Shown here: in pieces, positions 3,995 to 34,625 of the stretch
Layout: each line of letters starts with the position of its first letter
Position numbering within the stretch: position 1 is the stretch's first letter
Assembly: GCA_964372485.1 (NCBI GenBank)
Contig: CAYJQI010000001.1
Coordinates: 707,829 to 771,828, forward strand
DNA: 64,000 nucleotides
Direction of reading: 5' to 3'
DNA from: an uncultured archaeon
GTDB lineage: Archaea > Aenigmatarchaeota > Aenigmatarchaeia > CG10238-14 > SCSR01
Translations under genes and position numbers: made by a program
Notes under the pieces: model-generated
Database searches by the model: none
What the model saw: the letters and a program-made list of their open reading frames with translations, nothing else
What the model was told of the DNA's origin: nothing

Positions 3995-4180
3995 TTATGA
4001 GAGTTGCTTGAGAATCTTTCCACGGATTTCAGCATCCCCGCCAGTAGGAACTACGAGTTCTGCTTCACATTTCAGGCATTTTACAAGCGTAGAAGCCTTG
4101 CTGAAAACAACCTGCTCGTTCTTGCATTTTCTGCACGAAACAGCTACAAACTTACTTCTTGGCATTTGAATTTGTTCCAT
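3995..4180 (-). CDS. rps27e: Ribosomal protein eS27 (S27e)
   Basis: C4 zinc knuckle and the conserved string VSCRKCKNEQVVFSKASTLVKCLKCEAELVVPTGG. Confidence 0.95.
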   Translation of the reverse strand: MEQIQMPRSKFVAVSCRKCKNEQVVFSKASTLVKCLKCEAELVVPTGGDAEIRGKILKQLS

Positions 4181-4181
4181 T

Positions 4182-4463
4182 TTACACCCTTACAATTTCG
4201 AACTTTTTAGCTCTAAAACCTTGGCCCCTCATATGCTTCTTTCCACAAACTGTACATTTGTATCTTAGATCTATCTTCTTTGTGGCTTTCTCATAATCTG
4301 GTTGTGGTCTAGGAAAACTACCATATCCCTTTAATTTTCTTAAATATCGTCTCTGTCCCTGCGCCATTACTCGTCTTGTTTTCTTCTTAGCGACTTCAAC
4401 TGTGTGTTCGGTGTGTTTTTTACAGTGAGGACAGTAAGTCTTGAGCTTCTGAGGGAATTTCAT
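4182..4463 (-). CDS. rpl44e: Ribosomal protein eL42 (L44e)
   Basis: [11 protein letters not shown]...QGQRRY.RK.KGYG...KCTVCGKKH pattern. It is directly coupled to rps27e, as in most archaea. Confidence 0.95.
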
Positions 4464-4494
4464 TTAAATCAATTAGAACATCTAGTTTAAAAGT

Positions 4495-5022
4495 TTATTT
4501 AACTTTCTCCACGATACCTCTTTCCAAAAGTATCTTCATGTTTTCATCCGGAAGTGTTGTCATGTCGCCTTTTCTGAAAGGTCCGTAAGTTTTTTCGTCC
4601 ATTCCTAGAAATTCCGGTGTGTCTTCTCTAAACATAACTGTGGGTTGAGAAGGTTCGGATTTCCCAACAAAAATATTACTGGATTCTTTTCTCCGGTTTT
4701 TTATTAAAATTAACACAGAACTGTAAAATGATCTTTCATCGTCATCTAGATTTTCAGGTGATAATCCGCTTCTAGCAGCAATTATTGCGGCGTTGAGTAT
4801 CTTTCTCTCTCGACGATTTATTATATCCTCGACCAATCGTTCTACATTTCTCAGTTCTAAAGAACTCTTTCTATCATCATTTGCGATTACTTTTTTCTTT
4901 TGTTCCAAATAATTTGAGACAGAATTGAAAAAGTTCGTAGGGAGGCGTGTCAAAGTCGGTAATTTTTGTTCTTCGAGTTGGATTTTTCTTATAAGCTCGA
5001 AGGTTATAGTTTCTTCAGTCAT
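4495..5022 (-). CDS. GINS subunit (Gins51/Gins15-like)
   Basis: A-domain-like helical N-terminus (ELIRKIQLEE...NYLEQKKK...LVEDIINRRERKIL) and a small C-terminal B-domain (GDMTTLPDENMKILLERGIVEKV). It sits immediately downstream of the primase gene, the classic archaeal PriS-Gins linkage. Confidence 0.65.
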   Translation of the reverse strand: MTEETITFELIRKIQLEEQKLPTLTRLPTNFFNSVSNYLEQKKKVIANDDRKSSLELRNVERLVEDIINRRERKILNAAIIAARSGLSPENLDDDERSFYSSVLILIKNRRKESSNIFVGKSEPSQPTVMFREDTPEFLGMDEKTYGPFRKGDMTTLPDENMKILLERGIVEKVK

Positions 5023-5065
5023 GGTTTCAATTTATATCAAACGTGGAAAAGTTAAATATCTTTGG

Positions 5066-6355
5066 CTATTTGACTCGTTGTTTTCGTTCTTTCAATCTTC
5101 TTAAAGGCACATTAACCGGATTTTTAACTGTCGCGTGATTCACTTCTTTGCAACACACATCATATAATCCAAGTTGTTTATAGAAAACCTCATTATTGCA
5201 ATTCGGTGGGAGAAGATTTCTGTCCTGTCTGAAATGCCATCGTAATTGAGAACGAACATAATTCGATCCCAAAGGTGGGATATTTTTCTCATTCCATTCG
5301 AAAACTTTATCCTGAATTTTTTCATCAGACCATCCCATATTACGAAGGAATGTAATTAAAATGAACAAACCTCTTTTCTTACCATCGGATATACCGTTCA
5401 ACAAATGTTTTATACATCCTGGAAAGAAAATTTCTGGAACTTCTTTAACTTTAGTGAATTTTCTTGTCTGAGGCAACTCTTCCCTTATTTCAATTTTATT
5501 TCTACTTCCCCAATCCAATGCTTCAACGATTAGTCCTTCACTATCATTCTTTTCTTTTAAAACAAGGAATTTTTCTTCGACTTTGGCTTTTTCGATTGAT
5601 GCATCTTCTCGTTGGAATCTATCCAATTGTTCTATCTTTAGAGGAAGACTAACTAACAAATTTTTTTCATGAAGCGAATATGGTAGTCTAAACAAATGTC
5701 TAAGACCGAAAACATCGATTGAAACTATTTTATAAGGATCTATTTCGTTATCGGAAATTACATCAGTCAAATTCTTTCCCACTCTTTTCGCCAGTCCTTC
5801 ACCATCATCGAGATCAATCAATTCTTCTTTCAAAGAATCTTTTGCGTATGATTTCAAGTATTCGAGAATTGTTTGGTAAACTGAAGGGTATAATGTGCTG
5901 GTAGGTTGCAAGTTTATTCTATCTGGTAAAGATTCAAATGGCACTCCGATATGGAATCCTTTTCCACCCGTAAATTTTAAAGAATAACTCTTCACGCCAT
6001 GTCTTCCTAAAGCATCAATAAAACTTTTCGTAACTATTTTCGCAATTTCAAAATCTTTTACATCAGGATCAATTATCAAACTCCATCCTGTTCGTAATTT
6101 GTCAACTTGAGTTTTAGTCATTCCAACATCCAATTCCATTGGGTTTGACCATTGTTCAACAGAACCATGAAAGGATATAGTTCCTTCTGAAACAGCTTGA
6201 ATGACATCTGCGGGATATTGAATTATATCAGGACGCTTCCCAAATGAACCATCCTGAAAAACAGAAACAACTTCACGATTCTTTCCGATTTCCACAAGAG
6301 CCTTTTGAACAGATTCTTTGGAATACCATGACCATACCTTTTTGAACTCGACCAT
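5066..6355 (-). CDS. priS: DNA primase: AEP catalytic (PriS) domain fused to a PriL C-terminal-like (Fe-S) domain
   Basis: AEP motifs SLIIDPD (DxD), FTGGKGFHIGVP (sGxGxH) and LFRLPYSLHEK. The C-terminal third has FFPGCIKHLLNG...KKRGLFILITFLRNMGWSDEKI plus further Cys (PPNCNN, VCCKE), like the PriL-CTD. Confidence 0.8.
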   Translation of the reverse strand: MVEFKKVWSWYSKESVQKALVEIGKNREVVSVFQDGSFGKRPDIIQYPADVIQAVSEGTISFHGSVEQWSNPMELDVGMTKTQVDKLRTGWSLIIDPDVKDFEIAKIVTKSFIDALGRHGVKSYSLKFTGGKGFHIGVPFESLPDRINLQPTSTLYPSVYQTILEYLKSYAKDSLKEELIDLDDGEGLAKRVGKNLTDVISDNEIDPYKIVSIDVFGLRHLFRLPYSLHEKNLLVSLPLKIEQLDRFQREDASIEKAKVEEKFLVLKEKNDSEGLIVEALDWGSRNKIEIREELPQTRKFTKVKEVPEIFFPGCIKHLLNGISDGKKRGLFILITFLRNMGWSDEKIQDKVFEWNEKNIPPLGSNYVRSQLRWHFRQDRNLLPPNCNNEVFYKQLGLYDVCCKEVNHATVKNPVNVPLRRLKERKQRVK

Positions 6356-15005: not shown

Positions 15006-16253
15006 TTATCGTTTGGATTTTATCTTTTCCCTGATTTTCTCAAGCATGTCTACTCTGCTTTTTATCATCGTATTTTGCTTGTACGTTGATCGGTCTTTAA
15101 CTCTTTGTCGTATTTTTATCAGAACGAATATTAAAGCTGGCACACTAAGTGAAATTAAGACATATTTTATAATATTAAAGGCATTACTATCCACTATAGG
15201 TGTCAATACCGCCAACGGCGTAACTTCCAATGTAGATATTTGCCTTTCTAAAACTTCTTCGGCTGCGGCTGTCATTCGGATTTCGTATATTTTTGGCTCT
15301 GCATCTGTTGGAATTGTTATATTAGCTACAAAAACAACTTTCTGATTAGGCGATACTTCGAGTATTGAAGAGGGTGTAGATTTTTGCCATTCTAGAGGTA
15401 TTCTCTGGATAACAAATTTCAAATCGGTTATCTTCTGATTTCCGACGTTGGTCACTTCCACCGGGAAACTGAAACTTTCTCCTGGCTTCAATGTTATTTT
15501 TTCTGGGGCATCTACTGTCAAGTGGATGAAGGAACTGTTTACAAAAAATTGACTGATTGAAGATACCCAAGTTCTATTAAACACTATGATACTGGCTTGA
15601 ACTGTATACAATCCTTCCTGATCACATGTTTGTAAACTTAGAAGCCGTTCCGAATGTTCTTCCGCAGGCATAAAAATAGTCAGGCTCTGTGTGAGAACTT
15701 TATCTGGACAATTTACAGATACTTGGATTTCTATGTCAGAACCTTTAATGCCCATATTTTCCAAAATTACTTTTGTCGGTAATAGAAGACCAGGACGTAC
15801 CCGTGATGTCAGCGGTTCTACTATTATATCGAATGGGCCAAGAGTGCTTACAGAATTAAAATTAAGCAATGATGTATCGAATAGTTCGAACTTTACTTTA
15901 TCGTAAAGTTTGACTACAATTTCATGCTCTCCTATATCTTGAGGTGTAAATTTAGGCGTAAGAAATAGTCCTTTCTCTTTATCGAGATTAAAAGTAAATT
16001 CTTCATCACTAATAATTTTTCCTTCTTTGATGATTTGCACTTGTAATAAATAACCCCGTGATACATTGCTTGGATTTTCAACGCCAATTGAGAGAGTAAG
16101 ATCTTCCAAAGCAACAGGTTCTTCTGGGGAATATGTTAGATGATATATTTCTCCATTATTATCCGCAAATGCAGGTGATAACATCAACAATAGTGAGAAG
16201 AATAATGGCCAAATAATTTTCATGATTATTCTTTGGGTTTCCATATTATTCAC
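15006..16253 (-). CDS. Secreted, C-terminally anchored surface protein with NEW3/COG1470-like beta-sandwich domains
   Basis: Signal peptide. It has a repeated module of the P.eW.....p..l.v.p.....v...i.iP.da..g.Y.i type (IPLEWQKSTPSSILEVSPNQKVVFVANITIPTDAEPKIYEI). C-terminal TM segment plus a basic tail. Confidence 0.7.
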   Translation of the reverse strand: MNNMETQRIIMKIIWPLFFSLLLMLSPAFADNNGEIYHLTYSPEEPVALEDLTLSIGVENPSNVSRGYLLQVQIIKEGKIISDEEFTFNLDKEKGLFLTPKFTPQDIGEHEIVVKLYDKVKFELFDTSLLNFNSVSTLGPFDIIVEPLTSRVRPGLLLPTKVILENMGIKGSDIEIQVSVNCPDKVLTQSLTIFMPAEEHSERLLSLQTCDQEGLYTVQASIIVFNRTWVSSISQFFVNSSFIHLTVDAPEKITLKPGESFSFPVEVTNVGNQKITDLKFVIQRIPLEWQKSTPSSILEVSPNQKVVFVANITIPTDAEPKIYEIRMTAAAEEVLERQISTLEVTPLAVLTPIVDSNAFNIIKYVLISLSVPALIFVLIKIRQRVKDRSTYKQNTMIKSRVDMLEKIREKIKSKR

Positions 16254-19200
16254 TCTGTTTTATTTTCGATATTACATATCTTAATCTGGCGGCAACTGGC
16301 CTTTCGGTTCTTCTGGATTTGATGAGGTATATAATTCCAATGGCAATTGCTCCTCCGATTATGAATATTACAATGGTGAAGATAATTGACCTTTTACTCA
16401 CATTGAAGACAACTTCCTTTATGTAGAAATCTTCATCCCAATCGATTATCATATCTGCTATATATGATCCTATCACTGCATCATCTGGAACTGCTATTGA
16501 GAACAAAAATTCCTTCTTTTCACCTGGAGATACGTCAGCTGATATAGTTTCTGGAGACATCTTCCATCCGCTCGGTAGTCTTATGGATATTCCCAATTTC
16601 TTAGTTTCACTGCCTGTATTTTCAACCACTATCTTTCCTATTGTGCTCCTACCTTCCTTCAATGACGGAATTGTGAACTCTACTAATTTGAATCCAGTTG
16701 GGAATTTGCTTTCGATTATACTGAGTTCTCTAATTGGGAAATAAATATATGGTGTAAACTCATCGAGTATTTTATTGACGGAATAAGATAATGATCTGGA
16801 ACTTCCTACAACAAGATCTTCTATTGACCATTCGACTATAGGATCATCTTGGATAATTTGATCTGGATATGGTGCAAATTCAATTTCTTTAACACTCTGC
16901 GCAAGAATTTTTGGAACTTCTTCAGTTACTTCAATAAGTGATCTATTGATATCAGTTGGGTTAGATACTATTAATTCAACAGTAGTTTTGTTTGTGGTAT
17001 AGTCCAAACTAATTTCACGAGTAACAATTGGTCTATCTCCTAATTGTTCAACATTTTTGATTCTAAGCATGAAAAATACTGAAGCTTCAGCAACTGAATT
17101 TTTAACATTTATGAATACACTTCTATCTCCAATTTGTGTATTTTCAGGGACCGTGATGCTTATGGTAAATCCTCCTGTACTTCCTGGACTTAGATCTAAA
17201 CTGTCTGGAGTTACGAATATCCATTCCTTTGGAATGCCTGTTACATCTACTTTTAGATCAGTTAAAGTTTCTGATAAAATATTCTTTACTATAATACCTT
17301 CCACAACACTATTGCCTGATTGCACTCCTTTCAATATAGGGAATTTGACAAATTCAATTCCTTTTGATGGTAGTTTAGTAATTGGAGTATCCGGAACTGA
17401 AGATACTGAACCGGGTGATGATGAAGGACTTGGAGACGGGGACGGTGAAGGGGATGGCGATGGACTTGGAGATGGTGTTCCTATTGATACAACTTTATCT
17501 ACTAAATCCGAAAATGAGAAGGCTTGTGATATTATTCTTGTTATAGCTACAAATCTAGCAGCCAATTCATTGAGAGAAAATGCATTTCTAATTTGTATTG
17601 TCAAACTTTGAATTCTTGTTGGAATGTCTGTAAGTTCAATAGCATTAGTTGTTAGTCTAACACGAGTGAAAATATTTGTTATATTATCTAATATGCTCAA
17701 AGCTTGAGTTATCGCTCGGGAAAATACTTGAGATAAACTATTTATTGCTTTTTCTGATAGAAAGATTGGGTTTGTTGTTGTCCTAGGAATGGTTGAGAAT
17801 CTGCTAACTATTTCTTCCAAGTTAATTGCGCTAATAAATGAACGGGTGAATAATAGTAAACGAGTGAATGAGTCCGTAAGATCTATGGCGTTTGTAATAG
17901 ATCTCATTCTTATCATAAGAGCTTGTACATTGTCTGATATATCCAACGCTTGTAATATTACACTAGAAATCACGTGAGATGCAATGCTACGTACTTGTTC
18001 TGTTAAATCGATTGCGGTGGTAATAGATCTTGGAATTAATGAGAATCTACTCACAGCATCTGTTAGGTCGATTGCATTAGTAAAGCTCCTTATAAGTAAT
18101 TGTAATCTTGATGTAGTTTCTGCAAAATTTATTGCATTAGTTACCAATCTCATTCTTGATATAAGAACATTTATATTATCTGTGAGATCGAATGAATTTA
18201 TTATAGTTCTAGGTATTATTCTAATTCTTTCTACAAGTTCTGTTAAATCCATTCCGTTAGTGAAATTCCTAGTAAGTTTTAACATTCTTGTAAAAGTATC
18301 ATTTACATCAATCGCATTAATAAGTAATCTTGCACGAGAAACAAGATTTTGAAGATTATCGGACATATTGAATGCTTGAGTTACAGATTGGAAGAATGTT
18401 TGTTCTGTACCAGAAGATGTTCTATCAAATAATGTAATTCCGTTGGTGAAGAACCTAATTAATGACTGCATACGGCTAAGTGTTTCAGTAAAGTCAATGG
18501 AATTGATAATAAACCTTACCCGTAGAATAAGATTTTGAAAGTTATCTGTGATGTCTAAATTTTGAATTGTCTGTCTTAATCGAGTTAGTGAGGAATTTAA
18601 GTTATCTGTGATGTCAAGTGAAATAGTAACTCTTTTAATTAATGACTGTATTCTACTAAATGTCTCGGTTAGATCTATTGCATTTGTAATGAATCTTGCA
18701 CGTGTGAAGAGATTTGCTATTGTATCTGTTATGTCAAGAGATTGTGTGGTCTGCTTCATCCTAATTACAAATGCTTGAAATGTGTCATTGAGATCTATTG
18801 CATTAGTAAAGTTTCTAAAGAGTAATAATGTTCTCGGGAACACATCGGAAATATCTATTGAATTCACAATAAACATTGTTCGGGTGGATAGATTGCGAAC
18901 CGAGTCCGTAAGATCTATGGCGTTTGTAATAGATCTCATTCTTATAATAAATTTCTGTATTGTATCTGTGAGATCGAACGATTGGGTGATTAGTCTAACT
19001 CGTGTTAATATACTTCCCATTGTATCTGTGATGTCAAGTGATTGTGTTATTTGGCGCAGTCTGATTAACGGAGATGTGATTAATTCGGTGAGATCGAATG
19101 AATTAATGAATGAGCGCGTAAACGAAGCCGTCCGTGCAAAATTCTCTGTTAGGTCAATCGGTAATGTTACAAATTGGGTAATTAGAGGAAGTGTTATCTC

Positions 19201-20628
19201 TGTCTCTAGTCTATCGTTTAGACCTATTGATTGAGTAAACAGACGGGTGAGGGATTGTAATCTGCTTATAGATTCTGTGAGATCTATTTCATTTGTAATG
19301 AATCTTGCACGTGTGAAGAGATTGCGTATATTATCTGATATATCCAACGCTTGCAGTATAGTTTTGGGTAATGTCCTGAACATATCTGACATATCGGTTA
19401 AATCCAATGATTGGGTGAAGAAACGCTTGAGGGATTGTAAAAGACTGTAAGAATCTGACAAGTCGATTGATTGGGTGATTAGTCTAACTCGTGTTAGTAT
19501 ACTGCTTATAGATTCTGTGAGATCTATGGATTGTAAAGTCTGTATTATTCTGGTAAATGGCGGTGATTTGGATTCAGTCAGATCTAGAGATTGGATGAAG
19601 AAACGGATAAGAGATTGTAATCGGCCTAAGGTTTCGGTAAGATCGGTTGATTGAATTAAAAGTCTTACCCTTGTAAGGAATGTTGATATGCTATCAGTCA
19701 GATCCAAGGACTGGGTAAAGAATTTTACCAAAGAATTTTGAAATCCTCGGATTGCTGTTAATGTCAATGAATTTGTCAATTGTATGCCAGAAAATTGGAT
19801 TTTCGGCGAGTTTCCTGTGAAGAGAAACGCTTCTAATATGTCAACGTTAGTTGTTTGTATTGATGGTGTGATTGTGACAGAGACGTTTGCATTGCCAGTG
19901 AATGTAATAGATTGTCCAAGTCTTTGAAAGAGATTTAAAATTTTAATTACATTATCTGTCAATGATATCGATTGTCTAATTTCAACCGGAGACCAGTTTA
20001 CTGTAAGATTTATCCAATCTACGCCACATCCTTCAGAACCTTCTTGATTAACTCCCATGACTAAGATTGTCACATTTTTTGTATGACCAACATATTTAAC
20101 TACTTCTGAATTTGTAGTAATGTTAAATCTCTCGGTTGTTTCAGTTGTAAGTGGTTGAGTTGTACTAATATTTACCCAACTATTGCCTGTCGTATTTGCA
20201 AGATAAGTTGTACAAACTTCACCCGCATCATTTGTGCTGGCACCCTTGACTTCAACATATACAGTCATCCAATTGATAGTGCTTGCAGATTCATTTATTG
20301 TGAAATTGAAACGCATCCAAGGATCATCATTGGTAGCAGTTGAATTTGCCCAGCACCATACATCGTTAGAAGTTGCCAGATATCTATAACACATAGCACT
20401 ACCATTAGAACCAACCCATCCTTCTGTAAATGCAGGTGGTGGAGAAATGTCAGTGGTATTGAAAGTAAACACATTTTTCTTTGTCGAAGGATTCATTCCG
20501 CTGGAATTGCTAAAGTTATAATAAGTCTCGTATATTACTGCTGCTTCAACTTCTACAGAAATTAAAGTAAGTATAGCGATGAATGCCAATAATATGATTA
20601 ATTTTTTCATTTTATCAACCTTAGCCAT
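16246..20628 (-). CDS. Giant (1460 aa) secreted surface protein with five parts: an N-terminal beta-rich module, about 41 tandem 20-residue repeats, a (Pro-Ser)n linker, NEW3-like domains and a C-terminal TM anchor
   Basis: Signal peptide MKKLIILLAFIAILTLISVEVEA and many NxS/T sequons. The repeat consensus is about [SA][IL]D[LI]T[DE]xxxxxxRxRxI[TI][NQ]. The linker is PSPSPSPSPSPSPSPSSSP. Two P.[GE]W modules are present, and the C-terminal helix is IIFTIVIFIIGGAIAIGIIYLI. Confidence 0.85.
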   Translation of the reverse strand: MAKVDKMKKLIILLAFIAILTLISVEVEAAVIYETYYNFSNSSGMNPSTKKNVFTFNTTDISPPPAFTEGWVGSNGSAMCYRYLATSNDVWCWANSTATNDDPWMRFNFTINESASTINWMTVYVEVKGASTNDAGEVCTTYLANTTGNSWVNISTTQPLTTETTERFNITTNSEVVKYVGHTKNVTILVMGVNQEGSEGCGVDWINLTVNWSPVEIRQSISLTDNVIKILNLFQRLGQSITFTGNANVSVTITPSIQTTNVDILEAFLFTGNSPKIQFSGIQLTNSLTLTAIRGFQNSLVKFFTQSLDLTDSISTFLTRVRLLIQSTDLTETLGRLQSLIRFFIQSLDLTESKSPPFTRIIQTLQSIDLTESISSILTRVRLITQSIDLSDSYSLLQSLKRFFTQSLDLTDMSDMFRTLPKTILQALDISDNIRNLFTRARFITNEIDLTESISRLQSLTRLFTQSIGLNDRLETEITLPLITQFVTLPIDLTENFARTASFTRSFINSFDLTELITSPLIRLRQITQSLDITDTMGSILTRVRLITQSFDLTDTIQKFIIRMRSITNAIDLTDSVRNLSTRTMFIVNSIDISDVFPRTLLLFRNFTNAIDLNDTFQAFVIRMKQTTQSLDITDTIANLFTRARFITNAIDLTETFSRIQSLIKRVTISLDITDNLNSSLTRLRQTIQNLDITDNFQNLILRVRFIINSIDFTETLSRMQSLIRFFTNGITLFDRTSSGTEQTFFQSVTQAFNMSDNLQNLVSRARLLINAIDVNDTFTRMLKLTRNFTNGMDLTELVERIRIIPRTIINSFDLTDNINVLISRMRLVTNAINFAETTSRLQLLIRSFTNAIDLTDAVSRFSLIPRSITTAIDLTEQVRSIASHVISSVILQALDISDNVQALMIRMRSITNAIDLTDSFTRLLLFTRSFISAINLEEIVSRFSTIPRTTTNPIFLSEKAINSLSQVFSRAITQALSILDNITNIFTRVRLTTNAIELTDIPTRIQSLTIQIRNAFSLNELAARFVAITRIISQAFSFSDLVDKVVSIGTPSPSPSPSPSPSPSPSPSSSPGSVSSVPDTPITKLPSKGIEFVKFPILKGVQSGNSVVEGIIVKNILSETLTDLKVDVTGIPKEWIFVTPDSLDLSPGSTGGFTISITVPENTQIGDRSVFINVKNSVAEASVFFMLRIKNVEQLGDRPIVTREISLDYTTNKTTVELIVSNPTDINRSLIEVTEEVPKILAQSVKEIEFAPYPDQIIQDDPIVEWSIEDLVVGSSRSLSYSVNKILDEFTPYIYFPIRELSIIESKFPTGFKLVEFTIPSLKEGRSTIGKIVVENTGSETKKLGISIRLPSGWKMSPETISADVSPGEKKEFLFSIAVPDDAVIGSYIADMIIDWDEDFYIKEVVFNVSKRSIIFTIVIFIIGGAIAIGIIYLIKSRRTERPVAARLRYVISKIKQSE
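17488..19977 (-). repeat. Coding tandem repeat array, 60-nt (20-codon) period, about 41 diverged copies
   Basis: Protein residues ~218-1047 can be cut into consecutive 20-mers. Examples are SLDLTDSISTFLTRVRLLIQ, STDLTETLGRLQSLIRFFIQ and SIDLTESISSILTRVRLITQ. A few units are 24-30 aa. Confidence 0.8.
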
Positions 20629-29367: not shown

Positions 29368-30120
29368 ATGCAGGAAGTTAAAGAAAAACCTAAGGAAGTT
29401 ACTGAAGAGAAATTAACTATTGTTCCAATAACTCCAGAAGAAGCTCCAAAATCCATAGAAGAAATTCCTCTTGAAGAAAAGAAAATTGATTGGACTCCAA
29501 AAACAACTTTGGGTAAGGAAGTTTTTGAAGGAAAAATAACTAACATCGAAGATATTCTTTTTTCGGGAAAGAAAATAATTGAACCTGAAATTGTTGATTT
29601 TCTTGTACCAGGAATACAGAGCGAATTGATCCTTATTGGTGGAAGACCTGGAAAAGGCGGTGGAATTGAAAGAATTCCAATTAGAATAACTGCCAAGATG
29701 CATAGTTCGGGAAGAAGATTTAGAACATCAGCATTGTTTGTCATTGGAAATGGAAATGGGATTATTGGAGTTGGAAGAGGTTCAAGTGTTGAGCCAAGAA
29801 CTTCGATGAACAAAGCACTTAGAAAAGCGAAATTGAGTGTAATAAAAATTGATCGGGGTTGTGGTGATTGGGAATGCGGATGTGGATTGGAACATTCTAT
29901 TCCATACAAAACAAGAGGTCATTCGGGATCAGTGAAAGTTGATTTATTGCCTGCACCAAAAGGAGTTGGACTTGTTGCTGATAATGAGAGTAAGAAGTTA
30001 TTGAGAATGGCAGGAATAAAGGATATTTGGGTAAAGACTTTCGGAAATACTGCAAATAGAATTAATTTAATGTATGCTGTTTTTGACGCGTTGAAGAGAT
30101 TGTACATTTACAAGAAATAG
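29368..30120 (+). CDS. rps5: Ribosomal protein uS5, with a ~45-aa acidic N-terminal extension
   Basis: The S5 dsRBD and C-terminal domain are seen (GRRFRTSALFVIGNGNGIIGVGRG...; GSVKVDLLPAPKGVGLV). Confidence 0.93.
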   Translation: MQEVKEKPKEVTEEKLTIVPITPEEAPKSIEEIPLEEKKIDWTPKTTLGKEVFEGKITNIEDILFSGKKIIEPEIVDFLVPGIQSELILIGGRPGKGGGIERIPIRITAKMHSSGRRFRTSALFVIGNGNGIIGVGRGSSVEPRTSMNKALRKAKLSVIKIDRGCGDWECGCGLEHSIPYKTRGHSGSVKVDLLPAPKGVGLVADNESKKLLRMAGIKDIWVKTFGNTANRINLMYAVFDALKRLYIYKK

Positions 30121-30121
30121 G

Positions 30122-30421
30122 TTATGTTGTTATCCAAACTTTTCCAATTATCAAATCTTTTGTTATTGGTCCAAAATGCCTACTATCTTGACTGAAACCT
30201 TTGTTGTCACCAACAACATAAATTTCATTTGAATTTGTTATTACGGATATGCGTTTTATAAGAAATTTGTCTTTTTCTTTCGGATGTTTCAATACAATGA
30301 CATCTCCTTTCGAAGGTTTACCAAAAACATACGCGAGTTTATTCACAAGAACATAATCACCGGATTTGAATGAAGGTTCCATACTTTTATCTGCGATCTT
30401 GAATCGTGATATAGGAAACAT
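30122..30421 (-). CDS. sodX: SodX-like S26-family (bacterial LepB-type Ser/Lys) maturation peptidase for NiSOD
   Basis: The Ser box is DKSMEPSFKSGDYVLV, the Lys box is LIKRI, and GDN...S.DSR is present. It has only 99 aa and no TM segment. It sits immediately downstream of sodN, as in Streptomyces and cyanobacteria. Confidence 0.75.
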   Translation of the reverse strand: MFPISRFKIADKSMEPSFKSGDYVLVNKLAYVFGKPSKGDVIVLKHPKEKDKFLIKRISVITNSNEIYVVGDNKGFSQDSRHFGPITKDLIIGKVWITT

Positions 30422-30424
30422 AAG

Positions 30425-30913
30425 CTACTTCTTTGAAATTGGATATATTGTTTCCTTTTCTGTAGGATAAGGTGCTTTGAATCTTGCTGTCCCGAAACCT
30501 TTAGTCTCCCAAAATATTTCTGCGATTTCATTCACAGCTTCTAAAAGCTCATCTGCAGCTTGCATGTTAACTTCCTGTCTAGCTTTCGAAGCAAGTTTCA
30601 TAATTTTCCATACAAGCTCATGTAAATCAGGATAATCTTTCAAGTGTTCTTGTTTAAAGTAATCTCCCCACAAAATTCTAATTTCATGTTTGCATAATTC
30701 AGCATGTTCATCCTTCACTTTTGCATATCTCGCGATCTTATGAGGATCTTCTTTAGCATCTTCAATCAATTTCGTCATTCTTATCACGGTATGCGCGGCC
30801 ATTTGTGCAATGTGGGGGTCGTATATACCGCATGGAATATCGCAGTGAGCATATGCAATTCTCGCAGGAAATATTCTGTCTAATAATTTGAATGTTAAAT
30901 GAATTAGATTCAT
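30425..30913 (-). CDS. sodN: Nickel-containing superoxide dismutase precursor
   Basis: The Ni-hook HCDIPCGIYDP (consensus HCxxPCGxY) is preceded by a 22-aa leader ending ...IAYA. A four-helix-bundle-length C-terminus follows. Confidence 0.88.
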   Translation of the reverse strand: MNLIHLTFKLLDRIFPARIAYAHCDIPCGIYDPHIAQMAAHTVIRMTKLIEDAKEDPHKIARYAKVKDEHAELCKHEIRILWGDYFKQEHLKDYPDLHELVWKIMKLASKARQEVNMQAADELLEAVNEIAEIFWETKGFGTARFKAPYPTEKETIYPISKK

Positions 30914-30971
30914 ACTTTAGTTTACGATATCCGAATATTAATATCTTCGAATTTAGCAAGGATTTTTCTTT

Positions 30972-31985
30972 TTAGTTTGGATGTGTTACCATGCACAATA
31001 TATCCGAACCACCCTTGAAGCATTCTTTCGATATTCTCTCTCTCCCTCTAAATGTCAATGTATAGAGATTTAGTTTTCTCCCGAATAATCGTACATTATT
31101 TTTTCTTGGAAGTTTGTGATGATAGAATATTCTAAACCCTAGCAACTTAACTCCATTATGCAACGCAATAATTTTAGATTTATTCGGATGCAATTCAAGT
31201 TTCAATTTCTGCTTCAAGAAATTACCAATTAGCCATTTGTATAACAAAAGTTTGCCTTTAGATCTGTGTAAGATAACAAAATCATCGACATACCGGATAT
31301 AATATTTTGCCTTAAGATTATGTTTGATGTAATAATCCAATTCATTTAGATACACATTAGCAAAGAACTGACTCGTAAGATTTCCAAGAGGCATACCTTT
31401 TCCTTTAATTTTGAAAGTGTGGTTGTCCAAAATTATTTTTATTACCCGAAGAAATTTTTCATCCTTTATCTTCTTTCTTATTACATTCATTAGGATTTCT
31501 ATATCCACTGTATCGAAATAATGTTTTATGTCTGCTTTTAATGCGTAACCAACAATCACATTTTTGTCTTGAAATTTATGAAGCAATTCACCGTTTCTGG
31601 TAACTTTTCTTTTGAAATAGTCAAACCTTTTTAATCCAACATGCGTCCCTTTATTTTTTCTGTTTGCGTAGCTATCATATATGAAAGTCTTCTCAAATAT
31701 TGGTTCGATTATATTGCAAACAGCATGATGTATTACACGATCTCTAAAATCTGAAGCATGGATTACTCTTGTTTTTGGATCGCGTATTATGAATCTCTTG
31801 AGTGGAGATGGATTGTAAATTTGTGTTTCTAATTCTCTCTTTAATTTTCTTATTTCATTGTGCAAATTTGATTCGAACTCTTGAACATACCATTTCTTTG
31901 ATTTGCCTTTCTTCGCTTTCTTGAAAGCTAATAAAAGATTTTCTAATGAACAAAGCTGAATAAAAATATTATCATATGTTTTCAT
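30972..31985 (-). CDS. Diversity-generating retroelement (DGR) reverse transcriptase
   Basis: The RT motifs include IRYVDDFVIL (YxDD). The DGR-typical block is MPLGNLTSQFFANVYLNELD, an [ILV]GxxxSQ where group II intron RTs have QGxxxSP. The N-terminus LENLLLAFKKAKKGK...FRDRVIHHAV resembles other DGR RTs. The adjacent TR/VR pair supports the call. The ATG at 31985 is preferred over the track GTG at 31994. Confidence 0.88.
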   Translation of the reverse strand: MKTYDNIFIQLCSLENLLLAFKKAKKGKSKKWYVQEFESNLHNEIRKLKRELETQIYNPSPLKRFIIRDPKTRVIHASDFRDRVIHHAVCNIIEPIFEKTFIYDSYANRKNKGTHVGLKRFDYFKRKVTRNGELLHKFQDKNVIVGYALKADIKHYFDTVDIEILMNVIRKKIKDEKFLRVIKIILDNHTFKIKGKGMPLGNLTSQFFANVYLNELDYYIKHNLKAKYYIRYVDDFVILHRSKGKLLLYKWLIGNFLKQKLKLELHPNKSKIIALHNGVKLLGFRIFYHHKLPRKNNVRLFGRKLNLYTLTFRGRERISKECFKGGSDILCMVTHPN

Positions 31986-32018
31986 AAAAATCACGGTAGT
32001 GCCACATCCCAGGTTATT

Positions 32019-32176
32019 GGGCGGAAACCAAGACCCGTAATATCGTCTCTAAAGGATTTCGAATTCGATGGCCTCCTGTTCGCATTTACGCCAAGCAACA
32101 TCTTGTTCGCGTTGAATCGCCTTTCACTTTTTCTGCAATCGTGGGGATTCAAGTTCCAATTGCCACGAATGACAGC
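32019..32176 (-). repeat. DGR template repeat (TR), 158 nt
   Basis: It aligns to 32494-32597 with identity at every non-adenine position (coding strand). It is A-rich, with AAT/AAC codons. It shares the A-free 3' segment GGTCTTGGTTTCCGCCC with the VR and lies 33 nt upstream of the RT start. Confidence 0.85.
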
Positions 32177-32381
32177 TAATTTAGCCTAATCCACCAAGTT
32201 TTCACTGAAGCTTCAGGTTTCACACTAGTCACATCTGTTCATTCATCATTGTTACTATCTGTCGCCTCTGTATTTCATGGCTAAACGGGAAAAAAGTTGT
32301 TTAATGCACTATGGACAGGCGTGTAGCCTGGGACTGATGAGCAGACTACCGTAAGTAGAATTTAGTGAAACAGAATAATAA

Positions 32382-33113
32382 CTATTGTTTTCCGAGTAAT
32401 TTACCTAAAGTTTTATAGAGGACTTCTGCTTCCTCTCTAGGAATTTTAACAAAATCAGTTTCATTTCCGTTTTCGATCAGTCCTCGTCTCGCAGGGCGGA
32501 AACCAAGACCCGCAGACGAAACCGACGGCCCCCCGTTCGCAACCGCGCCGAATCGCCCAACGCGGGGACCCAAGCCCCAATCGCCACGAAAGACAGGCCT
32601 TAAACCTTCACAATAATTAAAATCAGAATTACTCCATATATAAGCATCTTCAATTAATCCTAATTCAGGTATGTGGTTTCGTAATCTTCCATCACTTTTT
32701 GGAAAAGTAGGCAGCTCAACTCTTTCACCACCATCGATTAAATAATTTCCATTTCTTGTATCTACAAAAGAACCCTCTATTAAAACAGGAACTTTGCCTT
32801 GTTTCACTTTTGGATTTAATTGCGGAGAATAACTCCCATCTTTGTTAGGCCAAGCTATTAAACTATCCGTCCATTCTGCAGGACCGCTGATCATATCTCT
32901 TTCTATATCAAGATGATTCTTTTCAAAGTAAGCTCTTGCAGCAGACCACTCTTTGCTCGTAGGAATCACTAAACCTCTTTCCTGAACCCATTGTTTTGCA
33001 GCATACCAAGTTATATCAACGATAGGACGACCATCAGTAAGAGCCTTCGTAGTGGCAACATAAAGATTTAATTCAGGAACTTGTTTGTAATTCAATTCAG
33101 TTGCGGTTACCAT
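32382..33113 (-). CDS. DGR variable (target) protein, FGE-sulfatase / C-type-lectin fold
   Basis: ITWYAAKQWVQERGLVIPTSKEWSAA matches the FGE-type v.w.eA..y..w.g.rLPTe.EW..AA pattern. The C-terminal scaffold FRGDWGLGPRVGRFGAVANGGPSVSSAGLGFRPA keeps RGxxW-7x-R-8x-P-7x-GFR spacing. It contains the VR. Confidence 0.85.
   Translation of the reverse strand: MVTATELNYKQVPELNLYVATTKALTDGRPIVDITWYAAKQWVQERGLVIPTSKEWSAARAYFEKNHLDIERDMISGPAEWTDSLIAWPNKDGSYSPQLNPKVKQGKVPVLIEGSFVDTRNGNYLIDGGERVELPTFPKSDGRLRNHIPELGLIEDAYIWSNSDFNYCEGLRPVFRGDWGLGPRVGRFGAVANGGPSVSSAGLGFRPARRGLIENGNETDFVKIPREEAEVLYKTLGKLLGKQ
32494..32597 (-). repeat. DGR variable repeat (VR), 104 nt
   Basis: It has 23 differences from the TR, all at TR adenines: aat->gat, aac->ggc, aat->ggt, cac->cgc and so on. 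It is locally GC-rich as a consequence. Confidence 0.85.
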
Positions 33114-33145
33114 GATTAATTAGATGATAGCAAAGGATTTAAAGA

Positions 33146-34084
33146 TTATTTCAATTTCTTATTCTCCCGATGAGATTTGTAAAAGAAATACGCAACAACA
33201 CCAAAAGTGATCAAAGGCGATATCCAAACTGGAATGTGGAATTTGAAGCTGTCCAAAATCATAACTATACCTAAGAAAAGAATCGAATACATTGCACCAT
33301 TCTTCAGATATACATACTTTTTAATTCTCTCAATATTTCCAACTGTAAGTTGGCGAAGAACAATCGCTCCTATACCATTTCCTACGAGAATCAATGGAAC
33401 TGATAATGTAAATGCGAAAGCTCCAAGCACGCCATCTATTGAAAATGTGGCATCGATGGCTTCAAGATAAAAAATCTTACTTAGATCTGATCGGCCTTTT
33501 TTCATCAAATTTTGTTCCTCATGTTCAGCATATTGTTTGAATCCATGTGTGATGAAGAACGCCGTAGATCCAACAACCGCTCCGAATGCCATCAAAGGAT
33601 CTTTCTGCAATGCAAACCACACAATAATTGTTAACAGGATTGAAACTACGGCAAAAAACCATGGAGCCTGCGAATGTAAAAATCTTTCACCAATTAAACC
33701 ATAATTCTTCGGCTCGACAAAAAGCCAATGGAAGAATAGAAACAATAGGAATATCCCGCCTCCTGCAAGAAGAATAGATGAAGACGATTCAACAGCTTCA
33801 GATACAGCTGGATCATTTGTAAATGTCGCTGTTATTGATCCGATAAATCCAAGCTGTGGTACAGTCGCCCAAACAATCACTAGAGGTAATAATCCTCTAA
33901 CTACAAAAACTGCAAAAATGATTCCCCATAAAAGAAACCATCTTCGTGCAGCTCTACCCATTGTTGAAAGAACTTGCGCGTTAATTATCGCGTTATCAAT
34001 ACTTGTTATAGTTTCGAATAAAGCAAGTCCTCCTACAACCACGAGCATCGAGACTATATCCATTAACCAAGTAGGTGAAAACAA
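33146..34084 (-). CDS. TerC/DUF475-family integral membrane protein
   Basis: The motif FETITSIDNAIINA is present, repeated hydrophobic helices run throughout, and the length is 312 aa. Confidence 0.65.
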   Translation of the reverse strand: MFSPTWLMDIVSMLVVVGGLALFETITSIDNAIINAQVLSTMGRAARRWFLLWGIIFAVFVVRGLLPLVIVWATVPQLGFIGSITATFTNDPAVSEAVESSSSILLAGGGIFLLFLFFHWLFVEPKNYGLIGERFLHSQAPWFFAVVSILLTIIVWFALQKDPLMAFGAVVGSTAFFITHGFKQYAEHEEQNLMKKGRSDLSKIFYLEAIDATFSIDGVLGAFAFTLSVPLILVGNGIGAIVLRQLTVGNIERIKKYVYLKNGAMYSILFLGIVMILDSFKFHIPVWISPLITFGVVAYFFYKSHRENKKLK

Positions 34085-34154: not shown

Positions 34155-34625
34155 ATGGAGAAAATGTTCGCAGTTATCCGATTAATCAACAAAGCTGATT
34201 TAAACAAGGACATAAAGGACACGTTGAAAATGCTGAATTTGGATGCTCCAAATAATTGTGTCATAGTTCCAAAAACAGCTGATTACACAGGAATGTTGAA
34301 AAAATTAAACAATTGTGTAGCTTACGGCGAAGTGGATAAACAGACTTTATCGAAACTCTTGGAAAAAAGATTGAAATTAAGCCAAGGTGACAAAAAGGTG
34401 GATGTGAATCTTTTGAAAGAATCGACTGGAATGAATTCCTTTGATGAACTTGCAGATTCTATAATTCAAGGCAAGAACAGATTGAATGATTTTAAGAAAC
34501 TCCAGAAAACATTGAGATTAAGTCCGCCTTCAAAGGGTTTTAAATCAACCAAATCCTATTATCCAGAAGGAGATTTGGGATATCAGGGGGACAAGATTAA
34601 AGATTTGTTAGAGAGAATGATCTAA
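34155..34625 (+). CDS. rpl30: Ribosomal protein uL30
   Basis: MFAVIRL...K.IKDTLKMLNL pattern. It has the archaeal long form (156 aa) and sits in front of rpl15. Confidence 0.9.
   Translation: MEKMFAVIRLINKADLNKDIKDTLKMLNLDAPNNCVIVPKTADYTGMLKKLNNCVAYGEVDKQTLSKLLEKRLKLSQGDKKVDVNLLKESTGMNSFDELADSIIQGKNRLNDFKKLQKTLRLSPPSKGFKSTKSYYPEGDLGYQGDKIKDLLERMI

Follow-up and report, generated by a model that had tools for sequence, protein, structure and literature searches.

How does a diversity-generating retroelement (DGR) rewrite its target gene when the template repeat (TR) that it copies is longer than the variable repeat (VR) that it replaces? This question is raised by a minus-strand cassette in a 64,000-nt stretch of DNA from an uncultured archaeon (GTDB lineage Aenigmatarchaeota; assembly GCA_964372485.1, contig CAYJQI010000001.1, positions 707,829 to 771,828), hereafter the window, which comes from a source contig of 791 kb. 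DGRs are treated as copying TR RNA directly into VR DNA; if the template is spliced first, processing of RNA by the host becomes a required and regulatable step of hypermutation. An earlier note on this DNA had described a complete, clean and apparently active element in the canonical order target(VR)-TR-reverse transcriptase (RT). The coordinates of the open reading frames (ORFs) bear out that order on the minus strand (Table 1), with a non-coding interval at 32381..31995 between the target and RT ORFs. The description as canonical does not hold, because the TR contains 54 nt that never reach the VR, and the same goes for "clean, apparently active", since the RT copy in the window is frameshifted and the repeats are not colinear. 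Here we propose, with a probability of roughly two in three, that the tRNA-splicing machinery of the host (EndA and RtcB) splices the TR RNA before adenine-mutagenic reverse transcription takes place.

The two repeats were aligned with a scoring scheme tolerant of changes at adenines, as plain local alignment with lenient gap costs ran into unrelated sequence. Rather than being colinear and of equal length, the repeats require three TR-only segments, of 15, 21, and 18 nt, in every gapped alignment. With these segments excised, TR and VR align without gaps across all 103 nt, and the 21 mismatches that remain all fall on TR adenines: 21 of the 25 adenines are altered (15 to G, 5 to T, and 1 to C), while the 78 non-A positions are identical without exception. 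This confinement of changes to adenines (Fisher p = 5e-17, segments removed) excludes a chance alignment of TR and VR. Of the TR adenines, 23/25 occupy the first or second position of a codon, and once spliced the TR would encode the asparagine-rich AVIRGNWNLNPHDRRFNANANRRPSNSNTGLGFR; the VR itself spans codons 173-207 of the 243 in the target. The two repeats end in an A-free block of 19 identical nucleotides, CGGGTCTTGGTTTCCGCCC, directly after which they diverge. The sequence downstream of the VR showed no convincing GC-rich hairpin, and there is no second VR copy within the window. The differences in length between TR and VR in the window are multiples of 3. Deletions in the VR were rejected as the source of the length gap, the VR being constant in length in all target homologues.

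Most of the earlier reading of the repeats survives this realignment. It had paired 32019-32176 with 32494-32597, counted 23 mismatches over a 104-nt VR, each at a TR adenine, and put the identical non-A positions at about 77, with an A-free shared 3' segment that it likened to an IMH-type boundary. The adenine-only spectrum, the near-complete identity elsewhere and the A-free segment are all confirmed; the counts become 21 mismatches over 103 nt and 78/78 non-A positions once the segments are removed, and the stretches compared, 158 against 104 nt, are not colinear.

Table 1. Features of the DGR cassette, in window coordinates. For the TR-only segments, the remarks list the exon helix strand, bulge, inner part, intron helix strand and second bulge, in that order, with a slash at each predicted cut, followed by the predicted exon-exon junction.
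Feature	Position	Strand	Remarks
Target gene	32382..33113	-	243 aa; predicted C-type-lectin/FGE-fold variable protein; VR near 3' end
VR	32494..32596	-	103 nt; codes ..VFRGDWGLGPRVGRFGAVANGGPSVSSAGLGFR; gap-free against the TR without its candidate introns
A-free 3' block of VR	32494..32512	-	19 nt
Rfam RF03019 "RT-16" RNA motif	32176..32345	-	cmscan 75.2 bits against a gathering score of 50
TR	32019..32175	-	157 nt: four exon-like blocks (103 nt in total) and three TR-only segments
TR-only segment 1, candidate bulge-helix-bulge intron	32123..32137	-	15 nt; CACG AT/T GCAGAAAA AGTG AA/A; central helix 3/4; junction 32138/32122
TR-only segment 2, candidate bulge-helix-bulge intron	32086..32106	-	21 nt; ACGC GA/A CAAGATGTTGCTTG GCGT AA/A; central helix 4/4; junction 32107/32085
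TR-only segment 3, candidate bulge-helix-bulge intron	32040..32057	-	18 nt; TTCG AA/A TCCTTTAGAGA CGAT AT/T; central helix 3/4; junction 32058/32039
A-free 3' block of TR	32019..32037	-	19 nt
RT ORF as it stands	30972..31994	-	340 aa; YVDD and LGNLTSQ; truncated by frameshift
(GA)5 tract in RT linker, frameshift site	31035..31044	-	codes ..RERE..
Out-of-frame conserved RT C-terminus	30922..31034	-	NIERMLQGWFGYIVHGNTSKLKRKILAKFEDINIRIS, then the stop codon at 30924..30922

Segments of this kind are not peculiar to the window. Related cassettes were fetched by way of target and RT homologues, and they supplied eight further TRs (L009/L026, L004, L011, L013, L016, L028, L029, and L030); where an RT is present on the contig, it is 66-79% identical to that of the window. 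The related loci having a VR on the contig carry TR-only segments at one to three shared sites, and over the nine TRs these segments measure 15, 16, 18, 19, 21, 31, or 33 nt, of which the lengths 16, 19, and 31 nt (L029 and L009) are not divisible by 3. In L009, L011, L013, L028, L029, and L030, the locus' own VR aligns with its TR without gaps after removal of 1 to 3 segments, with nearly all residual mismatches at adenines. The L016 contig holds a TR without a VR, and its two segments are assigned by homology. L004 has the same three segments in a decayed copy, with 10 non-A mismatches between TR and VR. The non-A bases of TR and VR agree inside each locus and differ among loci, which indicates that transfer from TR to VR is ongoing and that it yields a segment-free VR.

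As a control, five ordinary DGRs from IMG/VR were run through the same aligner, and TR and VR are colinear within the repeat. These came from an RT scan of viral contigs that returned distant DGRs only; an exact-pattern scan of viral contigs added no loci, and target-profile scans of genomes and metagenomes gave three loci, none with a TR. The L004 region (4001-5253) holds a target, an RT-16 motif and a TR with no RT gene within 4 kb, an eIF2-gamma gene standing next instead, and it is either an orphan or decaying copy or one served by an RT elsewhere in its genome. Six further loci (L001, L002, L003, L006, L007, and L010) hold target homologues with a VR-like C-terminus, and TR, RT-16 and RT are absent from the flanks that were fetched; these homologues may be targets remote from their DGR or else paralogues with no DGR.

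What the segments have in common is the geometry of an archaeal bulge-helix-bulge (BHB) splice site. The BHB motif has been described as a 4-bp helix flanked by two 3-nt bulges, with the first two anticodon bases paired in the helix and the splice site at 37/38 (PMC4090602). On this description, the bulges sit on the 3' side of their helix strands, and cleavage falls behind the second bulge base. A canonical 13-nt BHB intron in a tRNA-Asn gene of a related metagenome-assembled genome (MAG; L001) fits this rule exactly, as CTGT TA/A GTTTCT GCAG AT/A. Small introns occur in tRNA genes of three related genomes (L001 7255-7341, L011 4692-4791, and L010 2692-2782); the L011 tRNA carries about 17 extra nt in its anticodon loop that ARAGORN did not resolve.

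A central helix of 4 bp with two 3-nt bulges on opposite strands is present in all 20 TR-only segments. In each, a 4-nt exon stretch is placed 2 nt ahead of the 5' junction and its complement 2 nt ahead of the 3' junction, and the length of the segment equals 1 + inner part + 4 + 2 (20/20 segments). All four pairs form in 15 of the 20 central helices, including site 1 of L011, L013, L016, L028, L029, and L030 and site 3 of L009, L004, L013, L016, L028, and L030. The inner helix measures 2 to 7 bp in all but two of the 18 tabulated segments; those two, site 1 of the window among them, have 0 to 1 bp. Segment 2 of the window has an inner hairpin of 4 bp, and its sequence is unique in the window. 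The chance rate of four pairs together with an inner stem is 0.3-0.4% per position. For the segments open to this test, 2 to 7 placements are compatible with adenine-only mismatches, and one of these lies in BHB register; for segment 1, too, a single adenine-only placement gives that register. Cutting at the junctions predicted from the BHB rule renders TR and VR gap-free in 8/8 loci with a VR, with mismatches almost only at adenines.

The pairing is also conserved in the face of sequence change. At site 1, 84% of alignment cells are paired, vs. 12-33% when the partner is slid by 1-3 columns, and compensatory changes (e.g., A-U to G-C, and C-G to U-A) are found in 3/8 pairs. At site 3, 92% of cells are paired vs. 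22-47% for slid partners, with compensatory changes in 5/7 pairs, a level that 0/500 shuffles reached. The inner stem of site 2 covaries as well, CAAG/CTTG in the window corresponding to CAAT/ATTG in L004. The 5' strand of the central helix is exonic and is also bound as coding template, and the intron strand tracks it. Such pairing of exon with intron across the junction is what would be expected of a BHB, and not of a self-contained inserted hairpin.

One allele bears on whether the segments belong to the RNA that is copied. L009 and L026 come from different samples and encode an identical RT protein. The L009 VR is without all three segments, and the L026 VR lacks segments 2 and 3 and retains segment 1, which reads ATAGCAACGACAGTGAAAGG in the TR and ATGGCGGCGACGGTGAGGGG in the VR, a difference of six A-to-G changes. 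The adenine mutations in this intron-retaining allele indicate that segment 1 was part of the RNA copied by the RT and that its removal is optional. The retained segment is the weakest BHB of that TR, with 3/4 helix pairs and an inner stem of 1 bp. The two VR alleles (L026 ~90-187 and L009 ~700-815) also agree in the third exon, where both have GG in place of TC, a change at two non-A positions.

A number of observations weigh against TR splicing by host enzymes. The outer helix has only 1 to 2 bp, which makes the motif a relaxed one and not the canonical hBHBh', and a relaxed motif would need an endonuclease of broad specificity. Five of the 20 central helices, including two of the window's three, reach only 3/4 pairs. 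The minimum free energy fold of the window TR is not more stable than that of shuffled sequences (z = 0.32); it recovers the site-2 element only, and pairs the site-1 exon strand with an upstream exon instead. A de novo scan for the BHB motif is unspecific, giving about one match per 15-20 nt, for which reason the case depends on coincidence with the TR-only segments, on register and on covariation, and a conditional test on those segments was used in place of the scan. TR splicing is a prediction from DNA sequences, and we infer from them that EndA and RtcB would be the agents, that they would act at the RNA level and that they would do so before reverse transcription. EndA and RtcB are generally present in archaea and are assumed in this host on that ground; a related genome has an RtcB RNA ligase gene (L028 4977-6053) 1.4 kb downstream of its DGR RT. 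Finally, the bulges are rich in adenine, which creates 1-2 nt of microhomology at the junctions that might aid a jumping polymerase.

A jumping polymerase is the basis of the alternative that survives best, which we nevertheless consider unlikely. The TR RNA would here stay unspliced, and the RT itself would skip the segments by jumping across the folded elements, guided by their structure and by the A-rich microhomology. The optional removal seen in the L026 allele would be explained equally well by an error-prone jump and by splicing. Unequal lengths of TR and VR have been reported for about 7% of DGRs and put down to slippage where AAC is repeated (Wu et al. 2018, PMC5758913). Those elements resemble the present ones in the unequal lengths of their repeats; the slippage, however, adjoins AAC repeats and involves no conserved structured blocks of 15-33 nt such as are found here. 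A polymerase that jumps a hairpin should moreover drop the whole stem-loop, with both strands lost or neither, whereas in 20/20 segments only the 3' strand of the helix disappears and the 5' strand stays behind, with junctions 2 nt past each. A staggered and symmetric cut of this kind is the signature of BHB cleavage. Microhomology consisting of adenines would also be a poor guide for an enzyme that misreads adenines.

Loss of the segments at integration seems to us more improbable still. In this scenario, a full-length cDNA pairs with the shorter VR and the resulting loop is repaired toward the recipient, the segments serving a function in RNA structure such as binding of the RT. This would also produce a VR of constant length with occasional retention, and would account for the conservation of the segments as RNA structure. 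Loop repair does not predict, however, that the length of a segment should equal the spacing of the helix strands, that a junction should fall 2 nt after each strand, or that exon and segment should show compensatory pairing when the exon is a coding template, and such precision would not be expected over lengths of 15 to 33 nt. It is hardly credible that the element is a decaying or plain canonical DGR whose TR has acquired insertions since its last homing event. The frameshifted RT of the window and the L004 copy, with its non-A mismatches and no nearby RT, would fit decay. Against this, nine TRs carry same-site segments with conserved structure, and each VR agrees with its TR at non-A positions peculiar to the locus, so that homing continued after the segments arose. 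A window VR with 0/78 non-A differences speaks against long inactivity, and the 54 extra nt exclude a colinear canonical element.

Under the splicing reading, a single transcript would contain the RT-16 structured RNA, then the TR, and then probably the RT message. The TR portion would hold three mini-introns, each folding with its upstream exon into a relaxed BHB. From the geometry, host EndA is predicted to cut every 3-nt bulge between its second and third bases and RtcB to join the exons, giving a 103-nt template colinear with the VR. The RT would copy this spliced template with misincorporation at adenines, and the cDNA would replace the VR in the C-type-lectin-fold target. No Avd would be involved, and RT-16 may, speculatively, provide an RNA scaffold. 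Splicing would not be obligatory, and an unspliced in-frame intron copied into the VR would add length variation. The (GA)n tract would gain and lose units such that the RT is full length or truncated, the window copy, one GA too long, being in the off state.

Extended to the clade, the proposal is that archaeal DGRs with RT-16 mature their template RNA with the tRNA-splicing endonuclease and ligase of the host, which we hold to be probable on balance and which would be the first instance of BHB splicing feeding a reverse transcription that rewrites a gene on the chromosome. As part of it, alternative splicing of in-frame introns would generate length variation in the variable protein, the introns may protect the TR DNA against replacement by the cDNA made from it, and the repeat tract in the RT gene would switch hypermutation on and off in a heritable way. 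A retroelement RNA would join tRNA, rRNA, and a few mRNAs among the known substrates of the archaeal splicing endonuclease. There would also be a natural read-out, with the spliced or unspliced state of an RNA recorded in DNA, of which the L026 allele is an example. Where a repeat-based DGR finder presupposes colinear repeats, archaeal elements of this kind may be cut short or marked as irregular. For the engineering of retroelements, the interest lies in Avd-free RTs with a defined upstream RNA motif and in a candidate repeat-tract switch of mutagenesis.

The RT-16 motif ends exactly at the start of the TR, immediately 5' of it, and adjoins the TR also in L004, L009, L011, L013, L026, L028, and L029. 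RT-16 belongs to a series of motifs, RT-1 to RT-19, that were found near RT genes and listed with unknown roles, of which only RT-10 was tied to a DGR (Weinberg et al. 2017, PMC5737381). In the present loci it is pinned to the 5' edge of a DGR template repeat, and this position allows its assignment to the region that flanks an archaeal DGR template on the 5' side. The earlier note had seen no Avd-like accessory ORF, and this is corroborated in the cassette, where no HRDC, MSL or CH1 candidate was found either, and in the related loci, where no neighbor of seven cassettes is conserved or Avd-like. As 29% of curated DGRs are without accessory genes (PMC5758913), the absence of Avd is not unusual and Avd is not obligatory.

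The RT matches Pfam RVT_1 (2.4e-20) and has both the YVDD motif and the LGNLTSQ block ascribed to it from the letters. Its best relative of known structure is 8ub7_A, a 328-aa "Reverse transcriptase" (E = 2e-51), which is probably the Bordetella phage DGR enzyme bRT. Group II intron RTs (4e-22) and a "retron-type" RT (4e-21) are weaker relatives, and with 8ub7 far ahead of group II the enzyme classes as DGR-type. NCBIfam is without a DGR model, and against its models for group II, Drt3a, and retrons this RT falls far short of the cut-offs.

The RT ORF leaves its frame after ..TFRGRE, and the conserved end, NIERMLQGWFGYIVHGNTSKLKRKILAKFEDINIRIS, continues in another frame. Deletion of one GA unit restores ..TFRGRENIERMLQGWFGY.., and the corresponding motif, GWFGY..HGNTYKLRK, is in frame in full-length RT homologues. 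The frame is lost at this tract in L011 and L016 too, L011 needing a correction opposite to that of the window; L028 is in frame, as is L013, with a G9 run at the tract position. Among close RT homologues that bear a tract, either (GA)n or a G-run, about 17 of about 30 terminate directly behind RERE or GGG, whereas homologues without a tract are full length. The tract is polymorphic between near-identical proteins: P0025 (319 aa) and P0026 (350 aa) show 100% identity along 317 aa and part company at the tract. The (GA)n tract thus looks like a candidate phase-variable on/off switch of the DGR RT, in which the window copy would be off. The window RT is frameshifted, yet its VR is without non-A decay, and in a related population two VR alleles stand alongside an identical RT.

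Sequencing error was rejected as the cause of the frameshift, as many independent assemblies have the frame shifted at this tract, some one way and some the other, and so was programmed ribosomal frameshifting, for which the window and L011 would need opposite shifts. In L016 (~1000-1100), the RT carries two compensating frameshifts, one at an (AG)7 tract and the other in a run of GGGG that lies 30 nt further downstream; a stop codon separates the two. Simple-sequence contingency loci likewise have a dinucleotide or homopolymer tract in a coding region and near-identical strains that differ only in tract length; the difference is that the tract here lies in an archaeal DGR RT, with switching a candidate function read from sequences.

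The target has 12 homologues, one of them named as Aenigmarchaeota and two lying on archaeal-MAG loci, and all share the VR length of the window. An AlphaFold model built from a 48-sequence alignment reached a pLDDT of 91.9 (39 with a 13-sequence alignment). The top Foldseek matches of the model were TaqVP, a DGR variable protein (the best, with a probability of 1.00), FGE, Mtd, EgtB, and C-type lectins. Sequence profiles were less informative, with matches to FGE (E about 6e-4) and TvpA (0.13) and with Pfam FGE-sulfatase below its cut-off. The target is, according to the structure model, a C-type-lectin-fold protein, for which sequence-only evidence is weak, and the FGE/C-type-lectin scaffold proposed earlier is borne out by the model and its Foldseek matches.

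Compared with the prototype DGR of BPP-1 (mtd-avd-TR-brt), the present element shares a C-type-lectin-fold VR at the 3' end of the target, adenine-specific changes from TR to VR with TR adenines at codon positions 1 and 2, and an A-free identical block ending both repeats. It differs in being an archaeal element without Avd on the chromosome of its host, not in a phage, in having a structured RNA (RT-16) 5' of the TR and not in the TR-RT spacer, and in a TR that is 54 nt longer than the VR and holds three intron-like segments. DGRs in DPANN archaea and Avd-free DGRs are both already known. Archaeal and DPANN DGRs (Paul et al. 2015, 2017; "clade 5" in Roux et al. 2021, PMC8144416) share ultrasmall archaeal hosts with this one, in line with the earlier statement that DPANN were known to have DGRs, and "Architecture A1" (Wu et al. 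2018, PMC5758913) shares the target-TR-RT order without an accessory gene; small targets without a recognizable Pfam domain are common to both groups and to the present element. In the papers covered here on these archaeal/DPANN and A1 elements, Paul et al. 2017 excepted, TR introns, splicing and conserved structured insertions go unmentioned, and in the open-access literature we found nothing joining DGRs with BHB motifs or the splicing endonuclease.

Archaeal BHB introns, which interrupt tRNAs, rRNAs and a few mRNAs and are cut by EndA and joined by RtcB, have in common with the TR-only segments the 4-bp helix between exon and intron, the 3-nt bulges on opposite strands and the cut after the second base. 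They also include mini-introns of 13-33 nt, of which several may occur per RNA, as in multi-intron tRNAs (PMC4090602). The present case is different in that the candidate substrate is a retroelement template RNA whose spliced sequence would be written into DNA, in the relaxed motif with its outer helix of 1-2 bp, and in that cleavage is predicted.

The element is a DGR on an archaeal chromosome: the flanking plus-strand genes are of archaeal type (L19e, L18, uS5, uL30, L15, and SecY). The named RT relatives are mostly Aenigmarchaeota MAGs, the closest ones among them, as is the sole named relative of the target, and these relationships point to a DPANN (Aenigmarchaeota-like) archaeon as the host. 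The DGR is part of a minus-strand block (30122-34084) that splits a conserved ribosomal-protein operon between uS5 and uL30 and is bounded by plus-strand genes at 29368-30120 and 34155-34625. Besides the DGR, the block contains an S26-type peptidase, a nickel superoxide dismutase and a DUF475/TerC membrane protein; the peptidase is probably the maturation protease of the dismutase. Elsewhere in the window, a minus-strand ORF of 1460 aa (16246-20628) encodes dozens of divergent repeats of about 15 residues (LTRVRLITQSIDLTD-like), undetectable as repeats at the DNA level, together with a PSPSPS linker and a C-terminal membrane anchor, and is probably a surface protein.

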